The position numbers and the translations under genes are program-made. This document shows positions 6,093 to 60,908 of a stretch of 64,000 nt of DNA, piece by piece. The notes beneath the pieces were generated by a model, which made no database searches, was not told where the DNA came from, and saw only the letters and a list, made by a program, of their open reading frames with translations. Every line of letters begins with the position of its first letter. Position 1 is the first letter of the stretch. The stretch lies in NCBI GenBank assembly GCA_964016885.1, contig OZ024757.1:4402001-4466000 (forward strand), read 5' to 3'. The DNA is from Eledone cirrhosa. Lineage: Eukaryota.

Positions 6093-6209
6093 CATATATA
6101 TATATATATGTATGTATATATATATATATATATATATAAAGAAAAAGGGATGAAATCGAAAATGCAACTGAAGTCTTATTTTTTTTAAAATATATATATT
6201 TATTTGGTT

Positions 6210-6247
6210 CCTTTACCGGTTTCGCAGTTCTTCTGCTTTTCAAAAGG
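6210..6247 (-). ncRNA. Hammerhead ribozyme, U3-A8 core variant
   Basis: Inverted copy of 6557-6594. Confidence 0.75.
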
Positions 6248-6556
6248 TGAGTTGAGATGGAGGGTCTGTGGTTTTTCTCACATCTGGTTGGTCTCTAAAT
6301 GTTACTTGTTTTATATGGAAAAACTGGCTCGAAAACCAGGTTTTTCGAGAAGTAATTTGATTGGTTTGTCAATAATTATAATAAATTTCGCGCTATTGTA
6401 ACGCGAACTGGCGCGAAATTTATTATAATTATTGACAAACCAATCAAATTACTTCTCGAAAAACCTGGTTTTCGAGCCAGTTTTTCCATATAAAACAAGT
6501 AACATTTAGAGACCAACCAGATGTGAGAAAAACCACAGACCCTCCATCTCAACTCA

Positions 6557-6594
6557 CCTTTTGAAAAGCAGAAGAACTGCGAAACCGGTAAAGG
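6557..6594 (+). ncRNA. Hammerhead ribozyme, U3-A8 core variant
   Basis: CCTT-TTGAAAA-GCAGaagaaCTGC-GAAA-CCG-GTA-AAGG, then AATAAA. Confidence 0.75.
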
Positions 6595-6724
6595 AACCAA
6601 ATAAATATATATATTTAAAAAAAAATAAGACTTCAGTTGCATTTTCGATTTCATCCCTTTTTCTTTATACTTCCACTCGTGTAGGACACCTCGGTTATTT
6701 TTCATTTTGTAAAAAAAACCTCAC

Positions 6725-6833
<109 letters not shown>

Positions 6834-8696: not shown

Positions 8697-8777
8697 TATA
8701 CACATATATACATATATATATATACATATAAAATAAAATAAAATAAGTCAAATATTTAAAATTTGGCTTCGTTTATT

Positions 8778-8836
8778 ACTGCTATATATATATATTTCGG
8801 TGACAGCCATCTTTGTCTGTGACCTCTTCAGGCAGT
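8778..8836 (-). ncRNA. Hammerhead ribozyme, family B
   Basis: Inverted copy of 11274-11328. Confidence 0.8.
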
Positions 8837-11273
8837 CCGAATTAGTGTGGTAGAGACGAGTACACATGTTGTTGAGGTGTTTAACTTTGTCAATACTCTG
8901 ATATGCCCAGTTCCTGGTTGAGTTGTTATTTCAATGAGGAACTGGAATCATATGTATTTAAACAAACGAATTTCAGCGTCAAAGGACATCCTCTCCTCCC
9001 ATTGGTCAGTTGTGAGAACATTCCTCAGTCAAAAGTCTATAGAAATTCGTTGTGAGGCGAGGCAATCTGTAGTGGTTGTTCTTGTTATTGTTAAGTACAT
9101 CTGACCTCTACTCTTATGTTGGTAGTGGTGTTGGTGTTGGAGTCAGCTTAATTCCAGCTGCTGCTAATTTTAGATGGATCTGTGTGTGTTGGCATCTATC
9201 CTGCCACCATTTCTCGTGGTGGTGGTGGTGGTGGTGGGGGTGCCAATCATATGAAGAAATAAAAGGCAATAAAGTGAAGAAAATAGAAAATGAAAATAAG
9301 ATAATATAAGCAAATAATTAAACAAAAAAATGATAAAATGGTAGAAGGAATAAGATGGTAAAAGAATAAAATAAGATAATCAAATAAAATGTGTGTGTTA
9401 TAACCAATCTCAAAGTTAGAAAGATGTTGGCCAAATTAGAAAGGCTGTGTCAGAATCAATCTCTAGGCTATCATGGTGTCTGCTCAGCCTGGATGGGTCC
9501 CTATGGCTTGAGGGGAGTTCCCAACCTATGGTGTTGTTACTGTCCATATAGCTTGAGGGAGGTCCGGCCAAGAGGTGTCTACATGTTCTGGAGAAGTCCC
9601 TGTAGCAAGAAGATAGCAAAACACATAGCGCCCAAAGGGGAAGCAACAATGCGGGAACAACTAGCAACCCAACAACTCTCCAACAACTCACGACGCCCTC
9701 AACCCACCCATATAGGAGTATACGCAGAAAATCACGTGGTACAACCCACCCTACTCAGCAGCCCTAAAGAACAGCTTGGCCCGATCATTCTTTGGAGTAC
9801 TTGATAAATGCTTCCCGAGCGACCATAGATACCACAAGATCTTCAACAGACAGACTGTTAAGCTCTCGTATTCCAGCACCAGAAATCTGGCCCAACACAT
9901 AGCTAGCATCAACAGAAGTAGGCTTAAAACCCACACACAACCAGAAGATGGCAATATAAGCACCCAGCAGAACCATATGGAAGGAGCGAAGGGTGGACCC
10001 AGTGCCCACCCAAGAAACTCAAACAGACCCGGGACCCCCCCCCCCTCCCACCGGGCCCGTGGGGAAGACCACCATGTAACACATAACGGGAACCCCACAC
10101 TAGTCACGCAGAGGTCGACCACCCTCTGCAACTGCACAAACCCCGAATCATGCCTCCTTAGTAATGAATGCCTTAGGAATAACCTAATATACGGATGTTG
10201 AGTAAAAAAAAAACAACTCCGAACACCTCTACATAGGAGCCACATCAACCAGCTTTAAAGACCGTTGGTATAACCATCGCCATTCTTTCAATAAGGAGGT
10301 CAAAAGGAAAAGTACGGCTCTTTCCGAACTGATCTGGAAGCTTAAGCTGGACAGGACCCCGTACTCTCTAGCCTGGTTCATAATCAGGAAAGTACCACCC
10401 GATAAAGGGGGATCTGGCATATGCAAACTATGTCTGAGCGAGACCCTCGAGATACTAAGAGGTGGAAGCAGCCTGATAAACCTCAGAACCCACTTCTTCG
10501 GGACATGTAGACACCTCAGGGCCTGAACCTTCCTCAAGCTATATGAACAGTAACAACACACTGAGATGTGAACTCCCCTCAAGCTACAAGGACTTCTCCA
10601 GAACATGTAGACACCTCTTGGCCAGACCGCCCTCAAGCTATATGGACAATAACAACACCATAGGTTGGGAACTGCCCCCGAGTCATAGGGACCCATCCAG
10701 GCTGATCAGATACCATGATAGCCTAGAGATTGATTCTGACACAGCCTTTCTAATTTGGCCAACATCTTTCTAACTTTGAGATTGGTTAAAACACACACAC
10801 ATTTCATTTGAATCTTTATTTTTTTATTTTTCATTTATTTTCTATTTTCTTCATTTTATTGCCGTTATTTCTTCATATGCATGGCACAACGAGAAATGGT
10901 GGCAGGATAGATGCCAACACATACACACAGAATCATCTAAAATTAGCAGCAGCTGGAATTAAGCTGACTCCAATACCAACACCACTACCAACATAAGGGT
11001 AGAGGTCAGATGTACTTAACAATAACAAGAACAACCACTACAGATTGCCTCGCCTCACAACGAATTTCTATAGACTTTTGACTGAGGAATGTTCTCACAA
11101 CTGACCAATGGGAGGAGAGGATGTCCTTTGACGCTGAAATTCGTTTGTTTAAATACATATGATTTCAGTTCCTCACTGAAATAACAACCCAACCAGGAAC
11201 TGGGCATATCAGAGTATTGACAAAGTTACACACCTCAATAACATATGTACTTGTCTATACCACACTAATTCGG

Positions 11274-11328
11274 ACTGCCTGAAGAGGTCACAGCCAAAGA
11301 TGGCTGTCACCGAAATATATATAGCAGT
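11274..11328 (+). ncRNA. Type I hammerhead ribozyme, family B
   Basis: ACTGC-CTGAAGA-GGTCACAGCCAaagaTGGCTGTCACC-GAAA-TATAT-ATA-GCAGT-AATAAA. Confidence 0.85.
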
Positions 11329-11701
11329 AATAAACGAAACCAAATGTTAAATATTTGACTTATTTTATTTTATTTTACATTACTCCGGTGTAACCAAACC
11401 AACCTGCGCACTTCGTCGAGTGCTCCAATCTGCAAACTGAGGTGTTGGTATACAACCAACATATACTCAAAATTTATACATATATATATATATATATATA
11501 TACATATATACATATATACATATATATATATAAAGAATTAATATATCTAGTAACATATATATACACAGATGCATACTTATGCTAGCAAATATATAGGTTT
11601 TGTCTTAGTAACTTTGTGGTTCAAGGCATGGGGATGCAGAACAATAATATGAGAGACGTAAAATAAGAAAATTATAAAATTAACTTACTTACTAAAATTT
11701 C

Positions 11702-12470: not shown

Positions 12471-13515
<1,045 letters not shown>

Positions 13516-13519
13516 TATA

Positions 13520-14054
13520 ATAAAAAAGAAAAGTTCGCTCTTCATGGCTGAATACAATAAATGTAATCTGAGCTCTTCGAATATTAATAATAACATTCGA
13601 TTAGTTTGCAATTTTGCAAATAAGCCTCAATTGTATAGCCATGTCAGTAGAATGAACACTTCATTCTTACTCTTGTGTTGGCATGCGAACAGAACTGCAG
13701 ACACTAACGTTTCTGGGTATACACAGTGACTGATTAGCCTGATTTGCATATTAACAGACTGGCTGATCAGTCACTGTGTATTTTTGAAAATAGCATATAT
13801 TTTCACTAGCTCTGATAGTTTGGCAGGTGAACAGTGAGCTGTACTGATGAAGGGTGATACCCAGAAATATTAATGTCTGCAGTTCTTTTCGCATGCTAAC
13901 GCAAGAGCAAGAATGAAGGATTCATTCTACTGACATGGCTATAAAATTGTGGCTTGTTTGCAAAATGCAAACGAATCGAATGTTATTATTAATATTCGAA
14001 AATGTTCTTTTATATATATGAGCGAAATATAGAGCGAAATATAGAGCGAAATGT

Positions 14055-14060
<6 letters not shown>
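13520..14060. mobile_element. ORF-less fold-back HHR element, family C
   Basis: 13575-13720 is an inverted copy of 13857-14000. Central hairpin at 13720-13780. Second copy at 18367-18720. Confidence 0.75.
13836..13885 (+). ncRNA. Type I hammerhead ribozyme, family C
   Basis: GAGCTGTA-CTGATGA-aGGGTgatACCCa-GAAA-TATTAAT-GTC-TGCAGTTC. Confidence 0.85.
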
Positions 14061-14121
<61 letters not shown>

Positions 14122-20127: not shown

Positions 20128-20230
20128 CAAAAACCTTGTTTGTAAATAATATTATTCTTTCTTCTCCATTTCCTTAACATGTTCAACATGACTTCATTTT
20201 CTCTCCACCATTTTTCACAATACAAATACC

Positions 20231-20270
20231 CCCCTTTGATAATGCATAAAATGCTGAAACCGGTAATAAA
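20231..20270 (+). ncRNA. Hammerhead-like motif, U3-A8 variant, 3' strand of stem I missing
   Basis: TTGATAA-tGCATaaaATGCt-GAAA-CCG-GTA. Confidence 0.55.
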
Positions 20271-20452
20271 CATTTATTAAATATATAAATAAATATATGC
20301 CATTGTTAATTAATAAATAAATTAACTAATACCTTAACACTTCACACAAAGTAAAATATTTTGTTTTAAACATTTTCTAACCCAGAAAAAAGAGAGAAAA
20401 ATAAAAGGAAAAAATATACTTTTCTTCTTAATAATCGTCTTTTTCTCCCTAT

Positions 20453-20499
<47 letters not shown>

Positions 20500-28550: not shown

Positions 28551-28581
28551 CTTCAATACACATATATACATATATATATAT

Positions 28582-31967
<3,386 letters not shown>

Positions 31968-32027
31968 TTGTTTCGACACACGATTTCATATAAAAAACCT
32001 CGCAAAACTAATTCATCCCCGCTATAT

Positions 32028-32194
<167 letters not shown>

Positions 32195-32341
32195 AATTAA
32201 AATACTAGAGTGTGTTGGAGTTAAACACCCTCTTCGTATTATAGAAATGACAGTAAAGGTATAGCTCAATGTAATTAAACAGAGCCGAAGAATTAGGAAA
32301 ATATACCAAAGAAGCCTTCAATACATCAAAAGTCTTTATTA

Positions 32342-32379
32342 GCCAACAATGTTTCGTCCTATTAAGGACTCATCAGGGC
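32342..32379 (-). ncRNA. Type I hammerhead ribozyme, family E
   Basis: GCC-CTGATGA-GTCCTtaatAGGAC-GAAA-CATT-GTT-GGC-tAATAAA. Confidence 0.88.
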
Positions 32380-35300
32380 AAGTAAAGCTATAAGAAGCAC
32401 TATCGGCCAATACAAACCAAAAACTCAGAAGAATATGGAGTATACATACATTAAAGCATAGGAAAATTATCGAGTAAAAATTATCAAGTAAAAATTGCTA
32501 AGGAAGTGAATAACATTTTGAACCATATTACAAATATAGTACAATGCAAAAACTAAAGCTAAACACAGGTGGTGATATAAAGTGAGAATTATTGTACTAT
32601 ATATAATATAATATAATATAATATAATATAATATAATATAATATAATATAATTGATAATGATAATAATAATAATATTAAAAGGCCCAACATACATATATA
32701 TATATATACATATGTACACATATATACATATATATCAATACACATTTCCATCAATACAAACACAAACTAACACTTATTAAGAGTTTAAATATAAATAAAA
32801 ATAAAAATAAGACTAAAAATAAAAATAAAAATAAAAATAAAAATAAAAATAAAAATAAAAATAAAAATAAAAATAAAAATAAAGATAAAAATAAAAATAA
32901 AAATAAAAATAAAAATAAAAATAAAAATAAAAATAAAAATAAAAATAAAAATAAAAATAAAAATATAATACATATATTATTTACAGTAGAAAATGATGAA
33001 GAAATGAGTAAAAGTAAACAATATATAATATACTATATAATTATATAATTAATAATCTCCGGTTAATTTGCACAAACAATATAAATATTACAATAATACC
33101 ATAATAACAATATTATAATATATTGGCATATAACTTAACAAATCATATAGAGTTACACACAGGGTGAGAAAAAATATCATACAGAACTAAATTGTGTTGA
33201 AAAAATTGTGCTGGAAAAATATCTATACCGTTGCAAGAAAACAGATGGAGGTCAAGTTTTTATACAATTGGTGTAAATAAATATTATCTAAACATTACAA
33301 AAATTATAAAAATATAAACATATGACAGAATTTACAAAATTTAACATAAGGGTACATCTAATAATCGGTAAATATTTAAGATCAATAGTACGTTTACAAA
33401 GAGTGATATGATATAACAACTTCAATATCAAATAATGAACATAGTATAATATACATAATTACATGGTTGGTAGACAGACATTTGTGAATAAGTGAATAAG
33501 AACCAGACAGAAACTACGCACGGTAGTAAAAAATATAAATAAAATCAACCGGAAATCGAAAAACAAAAACAAAAATATTTACTTAGGTGTAACATGCAGT
33601 TAAGTAAAAAAAATTAGGAATCAAACCCGGATAAATGACTAGAAAACCCTATTAAATTAATTAATACTGAAAGTATTTAAAATACATAATATGTCAATAC
33701 AAAATTAGCTATGGTTTAAGTAATCAAAATCTCATAAGTTTAAGATATCTCAATAAAAATATCCAGAATAGAATGAAATATTCTACTATCAGTTGAATAA
33801 CGTTATCTAATAAACGGACTTTAAATAGAACTATGGTAGGCTAATGGGGACAGAAAAAAGAAATGTATGGAGGATACGAAGGAGCATAAAATCATAATCA
33901 ATATACTGTATTATACAATAGAAAGTAGCATAAAAGGGAATTGAATATAATTATAGTATAATTGAAGGGGCGAATGACAAGTGTGTGCGTGGGGGGAGGG
34001 GGAGGGGGTTAATTATCTAAATGAGAATCCAAATAAAATAAAATAAAATAATATAAAATAAAATAAAATAAAATATATCATCAGATATAAACTCATAAGG
34101 TGTTAATAATGAAAATATAATATTTAAGAAGATAGATATGGTATGGTAGCCAAAATACTATGAAAGCTAGATCGAAAAGCTGTTAAAAACCAATAATAAT
34201 AATGATAATGATGGTGGTAAACAAAATGAACCTAAACAAAAAAGATAAGGGAATATAGCAGCTAATGGATACAATTTACACTACCAGAACCTTTAGGTTT
34301 ATAATAAAAGTAAGAATTAGAAATGGCGTGGGGGCAAGAAGAGAATATCTCAGACTTTCTATTAAGTAAGATTTCCCTAGAGAAAATTATAGAGTGGGTC
34401 TCAAGGATACAGAGATTACAAAATTTAGTGTGTGTTGATAGGTTATTAGAGTGTGCTATTAGGGTGGTTAGAATTGGAACTAACATAAGAGAGTATTTCA
34501 TTAGGCTTATGGAATGGTTTAAAACTATTAGTGACCAAGTCCAAAGTCACATCTAAAAAGTTGACCGCTCTATCATTTCAATATATCGTGATCGAAAGGT
34601 TAAAGCTTTTAAACAACTTATAAAGCTTCTTCTTATTATGCTCGATGTTGTTGGTGCTAGAGTTAATCACAAACAATGCATCGTCACGATAAAGTCCGTC
34701 TTTAAGGTGCGGAAAGGTAACATACAGTTCATTTAGGAGGAACAGCCCAACAAGATCAGTTACCTGGGCCGAATCACTTGAACCCATTGTAACGTCGAAA
34801 TTGTTGGGCGTGTTTTTACGGGTCCAAAATGTATCCTCAAAATTGATAGTTCTACGGGCTGCTAGTATAATATCTACCTGTGATCGTGTAAGGCTGGACA
34901 CTCTCATGGCCATCATTAAGGCTTTATTAAGGAGGATGGGTGAAATCGATGTGTAATATTGATCTTAAATATTTACCGATTATTAGATGTACCCTTATGT
35001 TAAATTTTGTAAATTCTGTAATATGTTTATATTTTTATAATTTTTGTAATGTTTAGATAATATTTATTTACACCAATTGTATAAAAACTTGACCTCCATC
35101 TGTTTTCTTGCAACGGTATAGATATTTTTCCAGCACAATTTTTTCAACACAATTTAGTTCTGTATGATATTTTTTCTCACCCTGTGTGTAACTCTATATG
35201 ATTTGTTAAGTTATATGCCAATATATTATGATATTGTTATTATGGTGTTATTGTAATATTTATATTGTTTGTGCAAATTAACCGGAGATTATTAATTATA

Positions 35301-36003
35301 TAATTATATAGTATATTATATATTGTTTACTTTTACTCATTTCTTCATCATTTTCTACTGTAAATAATAATATGTATTTTTATTTTTATTTTTATTTTTA
35401 TTTTTATTTTTATTTTTATTTTTATTTTTATTTTTATTTTTATTTTTATTTTTATTTTTATTTTTATTTTTATTTTTATTTTTATTTTTATTTTTATTTT
35501 TATTTTTATTTTTATTTTTATTTTTATTTTTATTTTTATTTTTATTTTTATTTTTATTTTTATTTTTATTTTTAGTCTTATTTTTATTTTTATTTATATT
35601 TAAACTCTTAATAAGTGTTAGTTTGTGTTTGTATTGATGGAAATGTGTATTGATATATATGTATATATGTGTACATATGTATATATATATATATGTATGT
35701 TGGGCCTTTTAATATTATTATTATTATCATTATCAATTATATTATATTATATTATATTATATTATATTATATTATATTATATATAGTACAATAATTCTCG
35801 CTTTATATCACCACCTGTGTTTAGCTTTAGTTTTTGCATTGTACTATATTTGTAATATGGTTCAAAATGTTATTCACTTCCTTAGCAATTTTTACTTGAT
35901 AATTTTTACTCGATAATTTTCCTATGCTTTAATGTATGTATACTCCATATTCTTCTGAGTTTTTGGCTTGTATTGGCCGATAGTGCTTCTTATAGCTTTA
36001 ATT

Positions 36004-36041
36004 GCCCTGATGAGTCCTTAATAGGACGAAATATTGTTGGC
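36004..36041 (+). ncRNA. Type I hammerhead ribozyme, family E
   Basis: Inverted partner of 32342-32379. Confidence 0.85.
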
Positions 36042-36114
36042 TAATAAAGACTTTTGATGTATTGAAGGCTTCTTTGGTTTATTTTCATAATATATATATA
36101 TATCCATATACATA

Positions 36115-39655: not shown

Positions 39656-39869
39656 ATTTACGTATCGAGAGAGAGAAGGAGGGATAGGCGATACATGTAG
39701 TTATTTGCCAATAGCGTATGCAGAGGTTGCTCAATACTAGTGCCGGCAGTATTAAATATTAGGTGTTAATATTTAGTGGGCGAGAGAATTAGCAGAGCGG
39801 AAGCATGTGGAGAAGTAAATAAAGGAGAACAAACCGTTAAAACATGTTTATTTAAGATAGCACCTACGT

Positions 39870-42552
39870 ATGTTTCGCCCGAATGGGCTTCTCAAGGGCA
39901 TAAACAACAAAAAAGCGTTCCTTACATGACCCGGAATGGGTATCAGCCCATCCATCAATGCACAGAAATGGAAGATCCAATTCATTGAGGATTGGGTTGG
40001 TAACCATCCATTTCACATCCCCTTCTTCATTCTTACTGAGACCCACCTTGACAACTTCCATTTGGTGGCCGAAGTAAGAGTGGGGAATTTCACAACCATC
40101 CGTGCTAATCGTGTTGGCAGAAGGAAGGGTGGAACTGCCATTTTCCTGCATGATTCCTTTATGGCAGATGGCAACACAACATTCTCTAATGGATACTGTG
40201 AATCAGTCACTGTGCACAATAAAGCCAATGATCTGACATTAGTTGGCATCTATAGGTCACCAAAAACATCCATAATCTGCTTCAAAGAATGCCTCAACAG
40301 TATTAAATGCTTTATTAAACAGTGCCATTCTAGCAACATACTTTTGATGGGAGACTTTAATCTACCCTGTGTCGGTTGGTCTACATGTAGTTTGAAACCA
40401 GGCTCCACAGCCTCAACCACTGACAAAGAAGCAGTCGAGTCTCTTGACTTCAAGAATGAGTTTTTATTGTCCCAACTTGTCCTTGCACCAATAAGGCATC
40501 AGAAGAACATTCTGAATCTAGTGTTTAGTAACCACACTAACACTATCCATAATATTACAGTGGAAAAAACCCTTCTCTCAGACCATGACATGGTTCTTTG
40601 TAACCTGAGATGCCACCAGCCGAAAGCTAATCCCAGGGTCCTCTTTCCAGCCCACCCATTTGATAACATGGATCTCTACAATGCCACCTGGCATGCTATT
40701 ATGAACGAACTATCACATGTTGACTGATCTTTTACACAAGCACACATTTCTACCAACATCAAAACATCTTGGCATATCTTTGTAGACACTGTCACAAATA
40801 TATGTACAAAACACACCCCACCAAAATCTGTGAACAAAACTAAGTGCAGTATCCCCAAAAACAGAAAAAACAATTATCAGAAAAAAGAACAAACTTAAAA
40901 ATTAGCACACTAAAATACTGCCAACAGCAAGACACACATTTGATGGCTACCGCCCTGCTTGAATCAGAAAAGTATAACCTCCAACAATGCATGATGACCA
41001 TCATCAAAAACCAGAGAACAGCTGAAGAGAGGTGGGCCATTGAGAAAATCAAACTCAACCCACAAGTGTTCTTTGCATTTGCTAAAAAACACAAGGCCAC
41101 TGTCTCCACTGTTGGCCCCCTAGTTGATGAAAATGGCACACTCCAGGACAATTCCAAAACCATGGGCGAGATACTGCAGAAACAATACTGCTCTGTTTTC
41201 AGCAACCCTGATATGGCTGATCTGGGCCGTATCAGTGAGGTTAATCCCCAACACACTATATCAGACATAACGTTTGGCGCCCCTGATGTCTTAGCGGCAA
41301 TAAACGAAATTAAACACAATTCAACAGTAGGCCCCGACAGGTTGCCTGCTTGTATTCTGAAGGTGTGTCGACACCAACTTGCATCTCCTGTTGCTAATCT
41401 GTGGAGGAACTCAGTGGATACTGGCTATATTCCTGAAAACTTTCTGTCCCATTCCGTTGTCCCAGTCTTCAAAAAGGGAATTAAGACCTTACAGTGAACT
41501 ACTGTCCGATCTCACTCACCTCTCATATTATCAAGTTATTTGAAAGGGTGGTGAGATCACGAATAACCCACTTTCTTGAAAGCAACGGCCTGCTGAACTC
41601 CAACCAGCATGGGTTCCGTAATGGAAGGGACTGTCTAACGCAGCTCCTGCATCACTTTGACGATGTTTTGAGAGCCTTGGGAGAGGGCCCCAACACTGAT
41701 GTCATCTACCATTATTTCAGCAAGGCCGTGGATTGGCAGTATCGGTAGAGGGTCGGACGCCATGCTTTGACGCATAGAGTTACGGCCCTTGCCATTCTGA
41801 GTTCAAATCCAGCCGAGGTTAATTTTGCCTTTCATCCTTACGGGGTCGATAAAATAAAGTACCAGTAATGTACTGAGTAATTTCTGGCCTTGTGGCAATA
41901 GTAGAAACAATTATTTCAGCAAGGCCTTTGACTGTTATCATTCTCTTCTCCACTTTTGCCCGACCCCACCTTGAATACTGTTGTCCACTGTAGTCTCACC
42001 ACACGAAACAAAGTATCATGAAAGTTGAAGCCCCCCCCCCCCCCAAAGGTCAATTACAAAAAAGATAGTTGGCATGACAAGCCTTGACTATGGGGTCGTT
42101 TAGAAAAGCTTAAACTTTATTCTCTTCAACGTCGCCGTGAGCGCTACATTATCTGCATGATGTGGAAAATATTCCATCAGCTTTGCCCGAATGATGCTGG
42201 CATCACCTTTAATGTACACCCAAGGCTTGGGTCCCGTGCTATCCGCCCACGACAAAAATCTCACTCGCATCTCATAACAACAATACAGCACAATTATTTC
42301 ACCTGAATAGGCTCTGCTCTCTTTAACATTACACCAAAACACATCAAGTTCGAGAAGTCTTTGGAGAAATTCCTTCAAGAAATCACGGATAAGCCTCCTA
42401 CACGCAGATATGCCTCCGTAAACCATAACTCTCTGCTCGAGTGGGCCATGGTGCCCAAACACTGATTTGTAAGACTTCGCCAGGTGGTGCTATTAAGTTA
42501 GACATTGCCTGGGCCAATACTGGCCGAATCCTATCAAAGTTATCAAGGTTAA
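39870..42552 (+). mobile_element. Decayed CR1-group LINE (APE plus partial RT, internal deletion)
   Basis: LTETHL, GIYRSP, MGDFNLP, LSDH, PISLTS, NQHGFR. The RT core is deleted at about 41932 relative to the copy at 54328. SINE inserted at 41728. Confidence 0.88.
41728..41912 (+). mobile_element. tRNA-derived SINE with target-site duplication
   Basis: Boxes A and B present. Flanked by atttcagcaaggcc (41714-41727 and 41913-41926), which is single-copy in the sister LINE at about 54471. Confidence 0.88.
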
Positions 42553-43005: not shown

Positions 43006-43126
43006 CGATATATATAGTAATAATAATAAATTTGAAGACTAAAATTCAAAGAGGGCTCGATAAGGATAAATATATATCAAATATATAAGAACCGTAGAGC
43101 AAATATTTATTAAAATAACAGATTAA

Positions 43127-43177
43127 AGTTTAAGCAAAGAATCGCTGCTTTCACCCTTAACGGGATCTTCTGAAACT
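43127..43177 (-). ncRNA. Hammerhead ribozyme, U4A variant, family F
   Basis: AGTTT-CAGAAGA-tCCCgttaaGGGt-GAAA-GCAG..TTG-CTT-AAACT. Confidence 0.75.
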
Positions 43178-46159
43178 AACAAAGTCAATCTGTGAACGCA
43201 GAAGTGAATATTTCAAAAAACGTTGCAACCGGAGGAAGACAGAAAGACGATACTTTGGTTCGTGGAAACGTTCCCTATACAAATAAGTAATGGTATAAAC
43301 ATAACATATACTTAGCTACCACATCAAGACGTAAAATATCCGCGTATAGTTCGTACTATCCCTTAGGGTATAATGTGGGGCTGTAATACAGGAAAGGTTT
43401 GTGCAATTTATGTTTACAAGCCGAAATTGCCTCAGATTTTTTGTTTAAGATGTGGTCAGCGGCGCAGAAGTCACATTGTCTTTTATTTCCATTATACGAT
43501 CTAGCCCTAGCTAGGATCTCCCAGTGTAACTTATATTGGGTGTGGTTGTCTTTTAGACTCCAGATATAAGCTGAAAGTGACGTCATATTCCTTCTTAAAG
43601 GGTAACGAAAAGAATGGGTGCGCATGTAAAGACGCTGCTTGAATCTATTGGCGGTTAACCCTATGTAAGGTGTTTCAACCTTACATTTGTAGACAATGTT
43701 ACTAAAGAGGCATTTCCCGGATAGGGGGCAGTCAACCCGATTCCTACAATTACAGTTAGTACTAACTACAGAGTTGCACGTGTTCCTACGGCTAGGTAGT
43801 TTAGCTAAATTTGAAGCTGTGATGTTATGTGCAAGGTTATGAGTCGTAGAGTAAGAAATTTTAATAGTATTTCTATTAAAAATGTTACTAAATTTATGTG
43901 TAGGGGGAAAATGCTTCGTAATAAGGGAGAGAAAGATCTTAGCTAATGGTGTGGCCACCTCCATATTATATGGTGGGTTATACCATATAATGCGTCGTGA
44001 TCTATTTCTTCTAGGTCTATTCTCGTAGTCTGTGTAAGCTACCTTATCGAAAAATCCACTCAGAGCAAGAGCTTCATTGTAATATGTGGAATGGTCGTTG
44101 AAAATATGCTCGTTAGTAGATAGACGGGAAAGCCTCAAAGAAACGTTTCTTACCAGGTTCTTGGTTATGCTGGACCTGAAGAATAGAATTCGTTCTATTA
44201 AGGATTCTAATGCCGTGCACGTCCATTCCGACACAACTGGCAATCTATATCAAGTGGAGCGCAGTACTTACCATCAACTGCTACATAATGCTGTAACTAA
44301 GGATTACCGTAAAACTAATCGGAGCGTCATTAATGAAATCAATGATGCTGGGTTTAAAATCACCTGGACCGGATTGAATCTCTGGACCCTATTTCTCCCC
44401 ACTTTACTCTGAAGGATCACAAATCCAATTTTCTGAACAACCCCTCTATTCGGCTTATTAACCCTACGAAGTTCGATTTAGGTAGACTTAGTAAAAGGAT
44501 TCTTGATAGAATTATACCTTAAATTAGAAGTTTGGCCCCTCTTGCACTGTGGAACAATTCTTTCGCGGTGATTGATTGGTTCAACGGCATATGCAACAAG
44601 GAACATTGCCGTTTTATCCAATTCGACATCAATAATTACTACTCCTCCACCACTTTACCACTTCTCCTTAGAGCTATCAATTTCGCTAAAACACTCACAG
44701 TGGTTAAGGATTTCGAAGTTGATGTCATCCTCAATGCCCGTAAGTCGGTGATTAATTTCGACGACTCTATTTGGATCAAAAAATCTAATAGTACCCCATT
44801 CGACGTGAGTATGGGCGTCAGCGATTCTGTGGAGGTTACTGATCTTATCGGCCTTTTCCTTCTTTTCTCTATCAAGGAAGAATTCCCCAACGTGGGCGGT
44901 GGTTTGTACCGTGATGATGGTCTTTTGACCATGACTAAGTGCGGCCCACGTGCTGGCGACAGGTTCAGAAAAGAACTCACAGCCTTCTTTAAAGTTGAGG
45001 CCAACCTCACGGTCGTTAATTACCTCGACGTTACCCTCAATTTATCAAATGGCTTGCATTACCCGTATAGAAAGCCGAACGATACGCTTAATTACATAAG
45101 TAAGTATTCTAACCATCCTGCCAGCATAACCAAGAACCTAGTACGAAACGTTTCTTTGAGGCTTTCCCGTCTATCTACTAACAAGCATATTTTCAACGAC
45201 CATTCCCCATATTACAATGAAGCTCTTGCTCGGAGTGGATTTGTCGATAAGGTAGCTTATACAGACTACGAGAATAGACCTAGAAGAAATAGATCCCGAC
45301 GCATTATATGGTATAACCCACCATATAATATGGAGGTGGCCACACCATTAGCTAAGATCTTTCTTTCCCTTATTACGAAGCATTTTCCCCCTACACATAA
45401 ATATAGTAAAATTTTTAATAGAAATACTATTAAAATTTCTTACTCTACGACTCCTAACCTTGCACATATCATCACAGCTTCAAATTTAGCTAAACTACCT
45501 AGCCGTAGGAACATGTGCAACCCTGTAGTTAGTACTAACTGTAATTGTAGGAATCGGGTTGACTGCCCCCTATCCGGGAAATGCCTCTCTAGTAACATTG
45601 TCTCCAAATGTAAGGTTGAAACACCCACGTCCCGTAGGGCCTACATAGGGTCAACCGCCAATAGATTCAAGCAGCGTCTTTACATGCACACCCATTATTT
45701 TCGTTACCCTTTAAGAAGGAATATGACGTCACTTTTAGCTTATATCTGGAGTCTAAAAGACAACCACACCCAATATAAATTACACTGGGAGATCCTAGCT
45801 AGGGCTAGATCGTATAATGGAAATAAAAGACCATGTGACTTCTGCGCCGCTGAGGCCCTGGAAATACTCTACGTCAAAGACCACATCTTAAACAAAAAAT
45901 CTGAGGCAATTTCGGCTTGTAAACATAAATTGCACAAAACTTTCCTGTATTACAGCCCCACATTATACCCTAACGGATAGTACGAACTATACGCGGATAT
46001 TTTACGTCTTGGTGTGGTAGCTAAGTATATGTTATGTTTATACCATTACTTATTTGTATAGGGAACGTTTCCACGAACCAAAGTATCGTCTTCCCGTCTT
46101 CCTCCGGTTGCAACGTTCTTTTGAAATATTCACTTCTGCATTCACAGATTGACTTTGTT

Positions 46160-46210
46160 AGTTTCAGAAGATCTCGTTAAGGGTGAAAGCAGCGATTCTT
46201 TGCTTAAACT
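46160..46210 (+). ncRNA. Hammerhead ribozyme, U4A variant, family F
   Basis: Same fold as 43127-43177, followed by AATAAA. Confidence 0.75.
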
Positions 46211-46778
46211 TTAATCTGTTATTTTAATAAATATATATATATATATATATATACATATATACATATATATATATTGGAATAATGTCTATATTCACATATA
46301 TATATATATTTTTCTTTTTATATATACATATATATATATATTTTATATATTTTTATATATTTATTTTTATTTTTATTTACATTTATTCATGTTTTATTAT
46401 ATATATATACACATATATATATATATGTACAATTTATTTTCAAAATATTTGTATACAACAACTACAACGGTACAACGCTTATTCATTTATTTTTCCCTCT
46501 ATTTTTATTTCTATCCAACGTTATTTTTACTTATGCTTGTCTCTCCTCTGTCTCTCATCATTTTCTATATATTTTCTTCTCTGTAATAATTTCTCCTTTT
46601 TCTTCTTTTTTCTCTTTCTCCTTTTCTTTTTCCTTCTTTTTTCTTTTTCCTTTCCTTTTTTCTTTACTGTATCTATCTCCCTTTCTTCCTTCTTTTCTCT
46701 CTATATCTTTATTATTAATATTATTATTGATGATGTAATTTGAATTTGTAAATTTGCCGGTTACATATATTTTCTATA

Positions 46779-47830: not shown

Positions 47831-50800
47831 AAATGAAAATCCGAAGGCAAGGTAAAATTCCAATCATTTAATCACGACACATGTTTCAATATGAGATAGA
47901 TCGATTGTGAAGCCATGATCGATTATCACTGATCTCAACGGGTGAAAACGAATTGTCTTCAAATTCTTGATATGAGGGAGAAACAATAACGATGTTCTCT
48001 CACAGAATCCATTCCCTCATATGGAGACACACCACTCAGTCAGAGACACGGCGACTGCTTTAGTTGAGGTCATAAAAGTTTTCAGATTTTCATCGCTGTA
48101 AAAGACGCTGTAGGGATACAGTCAGTCACAGTTAAAAGTGAGTGGGTACACACACACTCCACACCCACATACATCGGCTTGAGGTCAAAGAAAAATATAT
48201 ACATATATATACACACATCAACACAGTATTAAACCCGTAGATTTGGCGTGGGTGGGTACACACATACTTTCACACACACCGAAGCGATGTCCGAGAAAAA
48301 AACAAATATAATAAAACAAATATAAGAATGTACCAACACAGCACTCACCGAAAGTTAGTTCACAAAGCAACAGAAGCTATGTCGGTCAAATCTCAATTTG
48401 ACGATGTAAATTGGAAATATTGGGTTAACCAACGCCCCACACATACACACACGTGCGTGCGCGCAGGTAAGTTCAGTTCAGTGTTCTGCTATACGTGTAA
48501 AGATCGAAATGTAACATCCATATCTTCAAGTGTATGTTATGGTATATACACATCCGAATCGTCCAAAAAAGGGAGTATGTCCGGGAATATACACATCCAT
48601 GTGAAGAGCAAGCAATCAGCTCATGTCGAACTCCTTGTGTACCGCTATCCCATTGAGAATCAGTGTTACCAAATCCGTGCGTGCAAGCAACTGCAATGTA
48701 GGCCGGCAAAGGGCTCTGTGTAGGTTTGGGTATTGGGTAAATGCGTCCGCAAGTGCGATTTCCCGTCATATGGGCCAATGAGCTTTGAGATAGTTGTTTG
48801 AGTGGTCGATGTGTGTTATCCAACACAGAAGGTGAAGTAAGAAAACACAGGACAGTAAAATCCAAAGGTTGTGTGTAGGCCCATTTATGGTGTGTCAGTA
48901 TTATTGTTCAATCCGTAACAGTGAGTCCTCCATGGTTAGATGATCACGCATCAAAACCTGGTGTAGTGTTCAGTCGGTAGGAACGTGACTGTCGTAATTG
49001 TGGGAGCTCAATGTCTAAAGGAAACGAGTACTGTGTGTAGAGCTATGTATAGAGAGCGTAATCGGTCCTAACTAAGTGTGTAATCAATCTAACTATTTAC
49101 TAGCTAGGTATTCTAAAAGAGAGCACTCAGCTATGAGAACTCCGTGGAAACAGGCCGAGTATCGTTTGCAGGTACGCAAACAATCTTAGCCGTCTAACTA
49201 CCTAAGTGTGTGACTGTCCGTTTATTGAGAGAACTCAATGGCTAAAGTAGAGAGGGAGGAGTTATTGGTAGGTTACCTTCCAAAAATCCTGCGGAAGGTT
49301 TTCGAGGTTCTATGTTGACAGTTGCTGAACAAATCTGCTCTCCTATTAATTAATAGGGGGCCGCTTCTAATAATATTAAAAGTTTCAGCTATACATAAAT
49401 TGCAGATGCCAGTGCTGCCGTTATAAGGTTGGGCTGAGCAAACTATGGACCAGGATAAGGAGTGCTCTATATTCTGATGTTTAAGCTTCCAGACTAATTC
49501 CGAAAGTGCCGAGCTATTTTTTTATCTAATCTATTAAAGATATGGCGGTGATTATACCATCTATCCTTAAATTCCGTGGCAGTTGCCCCAACATACCTAA
49601 AGGTTCTATCAGGAGTGGAGACCTTACAGTCGTAGACTATGTTTTTGGTAAGGCATTTCCCAGCCAAGGGGCAGGTGGCGGTGCTTCTGCAGTTACATTT
49701 TTTGCTATCGATCTGGGTAGTTCCAGATGGACCACGGTACCTTTGTGGTCGGGTCTCAGTTCCAGTCTGCTCTATGGGTAAATTCTCTGGTGTTGGGGAG
49801 ACCCGACTCGCCTCACGTGTTTGAGTCAGTTCCTCAATAGAGCTGCCATTGTTCCTGCTATGCCTAATTCCCTCATTGGCTGTCCTAAGTCTACTATAAT
49901 TCACCTTAGCTATATTTTGAGCTATGTTACTAGTTGTGGAGTAGGACAGCTTGATGGTATTTCTATTGAATATTTTATAATATCTGTGCGATTTAGGGAA
50001 TCATTTGTCTAAGGCCCTAAAGAAAAGCTTAGCTATATCAGTGGTCAGGCCAGTGGAGTAAGGGGGATTATACCACAGGACTTTTCTGGTCCGATGCCTC
50101 TTGTTCCTACTAACTATATTAGAATTACCTGTCTCCCTAGTAGTTACTGGTCTATTGTAACTGGAAATTACCTGTGGGTCGATGGTGTCCTGGGGTGTCA
50201 CGATTGTGTTCGGAAACTCCCAAGTCTCCAGGGCGGTGTACCCCCCGTGCGGCCATTGAGGTTACCCCCGATAGCCGGGGTTGTATCCACTATGCGTCTG
50301 CTACACCTGTCCCTATTCCCCTTACTCGACCCTCGTTCCATATCGCGTTCAACGGTAGTTATATCGGTTCCACAATTAAGGTTACCATTAGAGTTTCCGC
50401 TGGCGTTACGTTGCTCAGACCCAGTGTTAGTACCTGGGTGGCTGTTTCTATTAGTGCCAACAGCACTGGGACTAGGCGGTAGTATAACATGAAGACTATA
50501 TGAATCCTCCCTCGTATCCCGCCTGCTGTTAACTAGAGTGTCACTATTTAGGCCTAAGCTATCGCGGGCAATATTACTTCTACTATTTAATGGACGTCTG
50601 AATGAGATTCCCTCGCTATGCCCTGCGCCTTCCAGGGCGCTATTATAGTAATTCGAGATCTTATTTAAGGTATCTTCATTGGAAGATAGTCCTGAAATTC
50701 TACTAGAGACGCTTTTGATAATACCGTTAGTGACTATTCTAGGGTGGTTCGATTTTGCGTTGACATAGTTTAGATTCTCGTTGGGTTTGTGGTAGGGTTG

Positions 50801-52165
50801 GAAGAGTCCTGAATTGAGGTTAAGTGTAACATCTAGAAAATTAGCTATCTTTAAATTCTCTTCAAGTACTATACTTAGCTCTATGCTCTTGAAGAATTTG
50901 CTAAGTTCTTTCCTCACCTTCTCTACCATACTATTATTATGGAACGACACAGTAAACAAGACGTCGTCACGGTAAGCGCCGCCTCCCAGGTGGGGCATTT
51001 CCGCTCCGAGACAGTCAAGGAGGTAAAGGCCCACCAGATCCGTCGCCTCAGCCGAGTCCGTGGATCCCATGGTGATGTCGAAATTGTCTGGCCAATCCTT
51101 CCTAGTCCACGGGTCACCGTTGAATTCAATTAAGGTTTTCCTAGCTAGGAGAATTATGCTAATTTCTTCGGATGTAAGGTCGGTGTGTAAGCTAGCAAAG
51201 TTAAGGGCCCTACCTAGAAGAGTTGGAGAGATTGAAGAGTAGTAATTAGAGATATCGAACTGTATAAACTTAGTGCTATTCTTTTTCTGCGATTTTTCAA
51301 ACCAGTTAATTACCTCACTAGTTCCTGACCACAATTTGAACTTCGATCTCCTAACTAGAGAGGGGATTATTTTATCAAGGATGTTTTTACTTACGATTCC
51401 TATGTCCGACTTCGAAGGGGCTATCAGCCTGACAGGTCTTAATGATTCAAAGTTCAATTTGTGGTCCTTCAGCAAAATCCTCGGGGTTCTAGGATGGAAG
51501 GGTTCGGTTTTATCCTCAATACCCAGTTTAATCATGACACTATTGGCCTCCGTGTTAATTAAATCCAGGTTGGCCCATGTAGTTTTTCTGTAGCTTTTCC
51601 TAAGTTCTCTGGTTATCAAATCATCATAAGTTACTCTATCCATATCGTACAGGTTGTTAGTCTTGTCTGCATGCACTAAAATGCCGGTCGAGTTCTTTAA
51701 TTTTACTAGATCACCATTCAGTCGTCTCAGGTAACTTTTTCTCCTGAGTGGGTTTTTCCTAAACTTAAGGTTGGACACTATGTTAGACATTTCAGTCACG
51801 AATTCCTCCAAGTATTTATTGTGTGGTGGATTTCTTCTGGATTTGAATATTTCCTCGATGCCGCGCGTTCTCTCCCTGGGGTGGTTTGTTGGTGTTCCTC
51901 TGTCGAAGTGGAAGGCCTTCCAACGCATTCTACGGGCAAAGGAATCCGATTTACCTATGGCCAACCTTGTGAATTCTTTTATGTTGGGAAAAGGGATGTC
52001 CTTAAGTGAAGAGTTCACCGAGAATTTCTCCATCATATTCCTTGCTTAACAGCATTAAGTGCATCTAGCTGTTCCCTCGAATGGAATTGGAGATATACAA
52101 AAGCGTGGAGAATTTAATATTGCTAACATAAAGTTATTGGACCATTTTACACAACCAATAATGCA
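47830..52165 (-). mobile_element. Near full-length Naiad-type PLE
   Basis: Coding region 52036 to about 49273: RRMRWKA, HADKTNNLY, LLKDHK, QFDISNYY, FDITMGSTD, AYRDD, WYNPPY, CNCRSTATCPLAGKCL, YVG, CNLC, CQH. Two frameshifts and one TGA. 3' UTR of about 1.4 kb ends in a degenerate HHR-like motif (47872-47945, core CCGTTGA). Confidence 0.92.
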
Positions 52166-55832: not shown

Positions 55833-56312
<480 letters not shown>

Positions 56313-56393
56313 ATCATACTCTGGTCTATGAAAGCATCGAGTCCTCATACGGCCTACCGCATACGGACGCTTTAAGCTTCCAACACCAATTAC

Positions 56394-56456
<63 letters not shown>

Positions 56457-56555
56457 CATAAATGAAGTAATTCCGTCGGAAAAGTCCAGGAAAGAAGAGT
56501 GCTATATGTAGGTAACAGAGCTTAATAGTTATGTAATAAACAACATAAGGCAATT

Positions 56556-60100: not shown

Positions 60101-60130
<30 letters not shown>

Positions 60131-60131
<1 letters not shown>

Positions 60132-60908
60132 TAATTTAATATATCTACTAACATAAGCGCACAGATGTACGCTAATGCCAGCAAATACACAGGTTATGTC
60201 ATAGTACCTAGGTGGTACAATGCAGGAGAATGCAGAACAATAATATAAAAGACGTAAAATAAGAAAATTTAAAAAAAAAATTTTTTTTTTAAATTAACTT
60301 ACTTACTTAAATTTTCACTCCAACTAATTAGTTTCTGCAATAAAATTTTCTTATTTTACGTCTTTTATATTATTGTTCTGCATTCTCCTGCATTGAACCA
60401 CCTAGGTACTATGACATAACCTGTGTATTTGCTGGCATTAGCGTACATCTGTGCGCTTATGTTAGTAGATATATTAAATTATCTATATTTATCTCCAAAT
60501 CACTGATTTGTCGAGCAAACCTGCCAAAACCACTTCTAAATTTTTTTGGGGGTGTAGTAGGCGCCTGTCATCTTACCATCCCATTCCTACTGACTAGCCT
60601 CTGTGTCACGTGATTGATTCTTCAGAATCAGCCATATGATCAGTGGCAGTGAGAATTTTCGGTAGCTGGAATCCAGTCCTCGATAGCTGTTCCATTTACA
60701 GAATTATTATTATTTTTATATGAGTCCCCAGTGTCCGCGCATCGCCTGGAGACTCGGCTGAGAATGACCTCCCTGATGACGCAATGAAATTCTCAACAGT
60801 TCATTACGTAACTGTCTTTATCCCATTGCAGAAACTAATTAGTTGGAGTGAAAATTTAAGTAAGTTAATTTTTAAAAAAAATTTTTTTTTTAAATTTCTT
60901 ATTTTACG

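Follow-up and report, generated by a model that had tools for sequence, protein, structure and literature searches.

Results

The window analysed here, a stretch of 64,000 nucleotides from the genome of Eledone cirrhosa, carries at positions 6135-6731 a fold-back whose two arms of 259 nt each, on the minus strand at 6135-6393 and on the plus strand at 6411-6669, match at 258 of 259 positions (the mismatch is 6187/6617). The initial annotation had described a near-perfect palindrome here, which holds, with arms of 256 bp, which fall slightly short of those measured. The left arm is the 5'-truncated 3' end (pLTR) of a Penelope-like family, called F1 below, and stops at a short 3' end, 79 nt after the cleavage site (+79); the right arm is a second 5'-truncated copy of the F1 pLTR end, and it alone continues into a 62-nt 'tail' (6670-6731, plus strand) that reaches a long 3' end (+141). 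The 17-nt spacer between the arms (6394-6410, plus strand) is element sequence of the right arm only and marks the inversion junction, with a 1-nt overlap, and (TA)n tracts on the left (6094-6137) and right (6729-6830) represent the insertion target, within which any target-site duplication would be masked. The locus arose by one insertion, in which two 5'-truncated ends of a young Penelope-like element stand head to head; the two copies, coming from a single event, do not serve as the evidence for function that had been drawn from them. That the palindrome is instead an artefact of assembly or amplification is very improbable: the near-identity of the arms would suit it, and no contig in three public contig runs spans the whole right arm with its tail, but the unequal arm ends obey a family-wide rule, the spacer consists of element sequence, many other F1 fold-backs occur with differing junctions, and opposite-strand joints of F1 are found in contigs of one public run, which may derive from the source sample.

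Each arm contains a minimal type I hammerhead motif with a U3-A8 core. On the plus strand (6557-6594) it reads CCTT TTGAAAA GCAG aagaa CTGC GAAAC CG GTA AAGG, with stem I at 6557-6560/6591-6594, the core TTGAAAA at 6561-6567, stem II at 6568-6580, GAAA from 6581 and the predicted cut after A17 at 6590. On the minus strand (6247-6210) N3 lies at 6243, A17 at 6214 and the end of the stem I 3' strand at 6210, so that the core reported earlier is indeed present in both copies and the pattern CCTT-TTGAAAA-GCAGaagaaCTGC-GAAAC-CG-GTA-AAGG is common to both strands. Set against the type I core (N3-U4-G5-A6-N7-N8-A9, G12-A13-A14-A15.1, an NUH triplet and a Watson-Crick 3-8 pair), F1 agrees throughout, with U3 paired to A8 and a GUA triplet. 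Stem I has 4 bp in the youngest F1 copies and 3 bp in older ones, stem II has 4 bp, and stem III is a 2-bp palindrome (ACCGGU). Because stem III consists of just 2 bp around a CG loop, a partner copy is needed, and the fold is not the otherwise perfect one that had been proposed; no Rfam match falls at 6.2-6.6 kb or 20.2 kb among the 150 listed at E<=1 (18 lower-scoring ones came besides). The sole hammerhead among the Rfam matches listed in the window is at 32322-32392, and the microRNA matches in the window were rejected as (TA)n and hairpin noise.

In the best predicted fold of F1, U3 pairs with A17 (probability 0.61, against 0.03 or less in the other families tested) and so extends stem I, an analogue of the inhibitory C3-G17 trap proposed elsewhere (PMC3884650). 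The double-hammerhead dimer core, with stems II and III evaluated alone, comes to -19.1 against -22.5 for the best dimer fold. The whole repeat is predicted to fold at -444.7 kcal/mol with 264 pairs, and the ribozyme at 6135-6731 is predicted to be buried in this hairpin. At positions 3, 8 and 17 no other letter reaches 5% in the deepest of the three public contig runs, whose type is unrecorded.

A search of the species' own 3.0-Gb genome DNA with the arm returned 895 candidates, and all of the 40 scored round to 100% identity; exact matches of the F1 motif pattern, in which positions 3, 7 and 8 were unconstrained, number 11,820 genome-wide (control, 0). At locus L031 the arm runs upstream into RT and GIY-YIG frames, the GIY-YIG domain scoring above the Pfam cut-off (PF01541, E 2e-7) and the RT below it (PF00078, E 0.0014). 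The frames at L031 thus have the order of an EN+ Penelope-like element, RT and then a C-terminal GIY-YIG, with a weak RT match, and the pLTRs are tandem and inverted with an optional tail, as in elements of that kind. Unbroken stretches of 577 codons occur in 11 of 30 young F1 copies, and of 30 loci picked for their RT N-terminus, 8 have a sense motif ~1.39 kb upstream of the RT frame and ~170 nt ahead of the ATG. The arms are the pLTR of an endonuclease-bearing Penelope-like element. A non-LTR retrozyme, made of non-coding head-to-tail units, was rejected because the arms belong to a protein-coding element, and coding overlap was rejected as the cause of motif conservation because the ATG of F1 lies downstream at the distance just given.

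On RT motifs F1 is presumably a Neptune rather than a Nematis element, the RT trees having taken in this genome's elements alone. Its linker before GIY-YIG, CGRSNCGTC, has the form CX4CX2C and falls within CX2-5CxxC, a feature that Neptune and Nematis have and Penelope/Poseidon are without in the account of Craig et al. (2021, PMC8557442), which excludes Penelope/Poseidon for F1. In full-length F1 copies (L234, L237, L241 and others) an N-terminal frame of ~420 codons stops and RT goes on in the -1 frame, and the same change of frame is seen at loci L229, L225 and L263. The overlap T TTT TTA, in the register of the first frame, occurs in 24 of the 30 young F1 loci, each of those 24 with six T, and also in older F1, F2 and F5; it is a candidate programmed -1 frameshift, with a 3' splice site (TTTTTTAG) as the alternative. 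The legend of Fig. 1 in PMC8557442 describes an ORF1 set apart by a frameshift in some types, and our literature search on such a -1 frameshift in these elements found nothing beyond that legend.

Core variants were counted in 1,064,000 bases, comprising the window and 100 10-kb stretches taken at round coordinates, of which two lie beside it. A strict descriptor found 48 motifs, namely 36 with C3-G8, 11 with U3-A8 (the window supplying 3) and a single C3-A8, against 0.45 matches per 1.06 Mb in shuffled sequence (20 shuffles); since it demands GAAA, A13C is invisible to it. The lone C3-A8 motif is an inversion-junction chimera. With a looser descriptor, 664 kb gave 30 C3-G8, 8 U3-A8 and 4 others (shuffled, 4.2). 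The comparison of U3-A8 with single variants that the initial annotation had called for therefore comes out in favour of the double variant, with 1 mismatch beside 36 C3-G8 and 11 U3-A8 per 1.06 Mb. Within the young F1 subfamily, 16 copies are without U3 (9 C, 4 G, 3 A), all with A8, and 8 are without A8 (3 C, 3 T, 2 G), relative to a denominator estimated at several thousand, since the single-variant patterns require a flank present in part of the 11,820 copies. These singles are what post-insertion mutation gives, one founding event being counted many times, so the 1.06-Mb sample is the fairer guide. C3-G8 together with GAAACCGGTA turned up 10 times in the genome (control, 1), two of the matches being junction chimeras. 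A C3-G8 sister family of F1 was rejected because the relatives of the L136 query have U3-A8; C3-G8 occurs in the query copy alone, one relative has U3-G8, and a second C-G row in that search is a misregistered match.

The motif TTGATAA at 20236, cited earlier as an independent case, belongs to a 3' end fragment (20128-20458, plus strand) of a related older family, F2, and has U.U at 10.1-11.1 and a 1-bp stem I. F2 copies are 88-94% identical among themselves and TTGATAA is fixed in them, so its presence stands; its independence does not, because F2 is kin of F1, their RTs being 55-60% identical. Stem I has 1 bp in the family majority as in this copy, too little for a hammerhead stem, 174 exact F2 copies are without the 2.2-1.2 pair of that stem, and related variants have a stem I of 2-4 bp. 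A third relative, F5, was searched with a C-G copy and gave 36 scored rows: 31 U-A, 2 C-G, 2 C-A and 1 out of register. Among these, a U-A row is spurious and one comes from F2. Stem I is GCAA/UUGU in F5 and CCUU/AAGG in F1 and still pairs, a switch that reads as real structural compensation. A minor F5 branch with C3 (L192, L198, L210, L212, L134) has C3-G8 where N7-G8 is CpG. C3-A8 copies within this branch may have arisen from it by CpG decay, and may mark a possible route between the two cores, in either direction.

F8 (L260:475-505), a fourth and young relative, has 6,212 exact copies genome-wide, many in fold-back pairs, and a stem I of 3 bp. It keeps U3-A8 and has C13 instead of the conserved A13 in 98 of the first 100 copies listed, and thereby departs from the type I core at A13. 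The A13C change is expected to abolish cutting. Our literature search for A13C returned no paper, and published variant lists may already hold it.

The RT tree comprised 16 rows of short RT pieces from this genome's elements alone, 4 of them without an assigned motif, and was a quick tree under LG+G4. F1, F2, F5 and F8 group together on it (SH-aLRT 85), so that U3-A8 at 6561 and 20236 is most simply inherited; from a first RT tree, which was unsettled (bootstrap correlation 0.988) and joined long branches, only the F4/F1 split (100/100) was used. The RTs of F1, F2 and F5 differ by 40-45%, and their 3' regions gave (TA)n-type matches alone among the alignments listed. Judged from these copies, U3-A8 is the fixed state of the whole F1/F2/F5/F8 clade. 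A hammerhead that the initial annotation did not name, F4 (TTGAGAA, 39860-39899, minus strand), also has U3-A8 (U3 in 24/25 rows and A8 in 24/25), and its RT falls in a different Penelope-like clade, beside C3-G8 families. A single clade of all U3-A8 rows is rejected (p-AU 4e-6) and two changes are needed on the RT tree; the swap therefore arose at least twice, and F4 is, on this tree, the true independent case of U3-A8. C3-G8 would have changed to U3-A8 once in the ancestor of F1, F2, F5 and F8 and once more in F4, the swap being retained because the 3-8 pair is preserved.

The window is packed with other fold-backs (60118-60495, 13464-14121, 55845-56464, 8726-11380, 28556-32190, 32292-36091 and 43103-46234), several from Penelope-like families with C3-G8 hammerheads (for example at 11279, 25016, 32376, 52897 and 56610). 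Two long Penelope-like frames in the window, W4 (43359-46240) and W2 (49294-52045), have no standard hammerhead within 1.8 kb downstream. Elsewhere, L056:1771 (minus strand) has a further U3-A8 motif, whose stem III is complete and whose triplet is GUU, and to which no RT is linked. Retrozyme-like 310-bp units in tandem, bearing the canonical CTGATGA hammerhead, adjoin F1 and F2 insertions (L029:1-1495, L025, L048).

Head-to-head pairs less than 4 kb apart make up 48 of the first 100 F1 matches listed, besides one tail-to-tail neighbour and one in tandem. We mapped 32 fold-back loci, 20 of them close pairs from these first 100 (19 head-to-head and one tandem neighbour, which contains a fold-back) and 12 from the genome DNA search. 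In 26 of the 32 loci a +79 end on one arm is paired with a +141 end on the other, and the locus at 6135-6731, with +79 on the left and +141 on the right, fits the rule. One further locus combines a +79 arm with an arm cut off by the locus edge, four combine a +141 arm with one whose alignment stops short of +79, and in the last, two +141 ends are separated by 3.3 kb that includes another element; adjoining pairs with two ends of the same kind number 0 among the 32. Both 3' ends sit at TATA in the F1 element.

This pairing of arms fits priming on both target strands. In vitro, an anole element has two RT start sites and both target strands are extended (PMC11167929), and from this together with the one-long-one-short count we infer priming on both strands at the two sites. 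The GIY-YIG domain would cut the (TA)n target, each target strand would prime cDNA at one of the two TATA-containing RNA sites, and the two cDNAs would join at microhomology into a head-to-head truncated insertion. Inverted pLTRs with a one-sided tail are known (Arkhipova et al. 2013, PMC3846280; Craig et al. 2021, PMC8557442). Contrary to both-strand priming, however, Arkhipova et al. (2013) favour self-priming on antisense templates as the origin of such palindromes, and no difference in start site between the strands was seen for the anole element (PMC11167929), which counts against strand-specific priming here.

Discussion

We think it probable that the fold-back at 6135-6731 is a single head-to-head insertion, likely made by both-strand priming at a cut (TA)n target, and that its U3-A8 motif would act as a weak, partner- or protein-dependent self-cutter in the full-length RNA and be silent at the locus. 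The identity of the element, its copy number, the fixation of U3-A8, the +79/+141 ends and the kinship of F1 and F2 form the observed basis of this account. Where element RNA is in tandem, stem III would be built by ACCGGU pairing between two motifs of the same sense. At the locus, a read-through RNA would close into a hairpin of 259 bp and so conceal the motif; because the two copies lie on opposite strands, dimerisation in cis is not expected there.

U3-A8 is, as the initial annotation held, a compensatory core pair rather than random decay, since single variants are rare and the swap was gained separately in an unrelated clade. Its further step from compensation to present function is doubtful, given that F8 adds A13C in thousands of copies. 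As a whole, its view of two independent families with a fully active U3-A8 hammerhead and functional copies at the locus is unlikely. The natural occurrence of U3-A8 and its activity in vitro elsewhere (PMC3088659) and the rarity of singles speak for it, and an independent origin exists, but in F4; against it, the swap of F1 and F2 is common by descent, the palindrome records one event, stem I is missing from the 20236 motif, the locus is predicted to fold into a hairpin, and cleavage by the minimal hammerheads of these elements is poor even in dimers (PMC4209133).

A closer competitor, to which we give a substantial but smaller chance than to the account preferred above, is that hammerhead catalysis has been lost, or all but lost, in this clade, U3-A8 having once been compensatory and the motif now being a relic or a protein-binding mark unneeded for copying. 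The fixation of A13C in F8, the 1-bp stem I of F2, the 3-bp stem I of F8 and older F1, and the predicted U3-A17 trap in F1 all favour it, as do observations on the anole element, whose hammerhead mutants insert normally in vitro and for which the RNA-seq data reported in that paper did not reveal ends at the cut site (PMC11167929), and the possibility, raised by Craig et al. (2021, PMC8557442), that hammerheads are parasites of these elements. However, F1, F2 and F5 have retained UUGANAA, stem II and GAAACCGGUA across their RT divergence, stem I of F5 is compensated, and stem I is longer in the youngest F1 than in older F1. For the F1 motif taken by itself, a weak, partner- or protein-dependent ribozyme and an effectively dead one seem about equally probable to us; weighing the conserved core and the reported activity against F8, F2, the U3-A17 pair, the poor dimers and the anole mutants, we take it as a weak ribozyme.

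More tentatively, this clade may be a natural experiment in which Penelope-like elements spread without hammerhead cleavage and each fold-back records one integration that primed two strands at two fixed RNA sites. If so, the U3-A17 trap, the loss of stem I and A13C are each compatible with thousands of copies. Within one clade, nature has provided a graded series of families, with U3-A8 in F1, stem I lost in F2, U3-A8 beside a small C3-G8 branch in F5, and A13C on top of U3-A8 in F8. The series bears on what role, if any, the hammerhead has in Penelope-like transposition, and the one-long-one-short rule is a simple genomic constraint on the integration of these elements. The fold-back shape is already known for them; what is of value here is the end rule and the graded series of families.

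U3-A8 in Penelope-like hammerheads has been published before, with ~1,300 hits for Cercyon of Schistosoma mansoni (Cervera and De la Pena 2014, PMC4209133), and the locus at 6135-6731 adds a member. As in those elements, the motif lies in the pLTR and has a short stem I, a palindromic stem III that needs a dimer, and U3-A8, and opposite-strand pairs occur, 100-700 bp apart there. Stem II differs, with 4 bp and no extra base after A9 here and 7-8 bp with one such base there; so does the scale, since U3-A8 is here fixed clade-wide in more than 18,000 exact copies (F1 and F8 together), with A13C added or stem I lost in sister families. The U3-A8 swap was also known as natural and active in vitro from earlier work (Perreault et al. 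2011, PMC3088659, section 8), which reports the U10.1-U11.1 mismatch that we find in F2 and F5; section 8 of that paper makes no mention of A13C, and the examples assayed there are other motifs.

With the insertions described in PMC3846280 and PMC8557442, those of F1 share head-to-head inverted 5'-truncated copies, a one-ended tail and (TA)n targets, and with Neptune and Nematis (PMC8557442) the CX2-5CxxC linker. The tail is longer here (62 nt, compared with 30-40), and the one-long-one-short rule is counted here (26/32). PAc, the anole Poseidon element (Frangieh et al. 2024, PMC11167929), resembles F1 in having two RT start sites that define a tail, AT-rich targets, cutting and extension of both strands, and a hammerhead near the start of the coding region. 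PAc, however, has C3-G8 and an ORF start within stem II, in contrast to U3-A8 and an ATG ~170 nt downstream in F1; its RT starts are non-homologous to the target, whereas both ends here lie at TATA matching the target; and no start-site difference was seen between its two strands (PMC11167929), whereas the two arms of the fold-backs described here differ.
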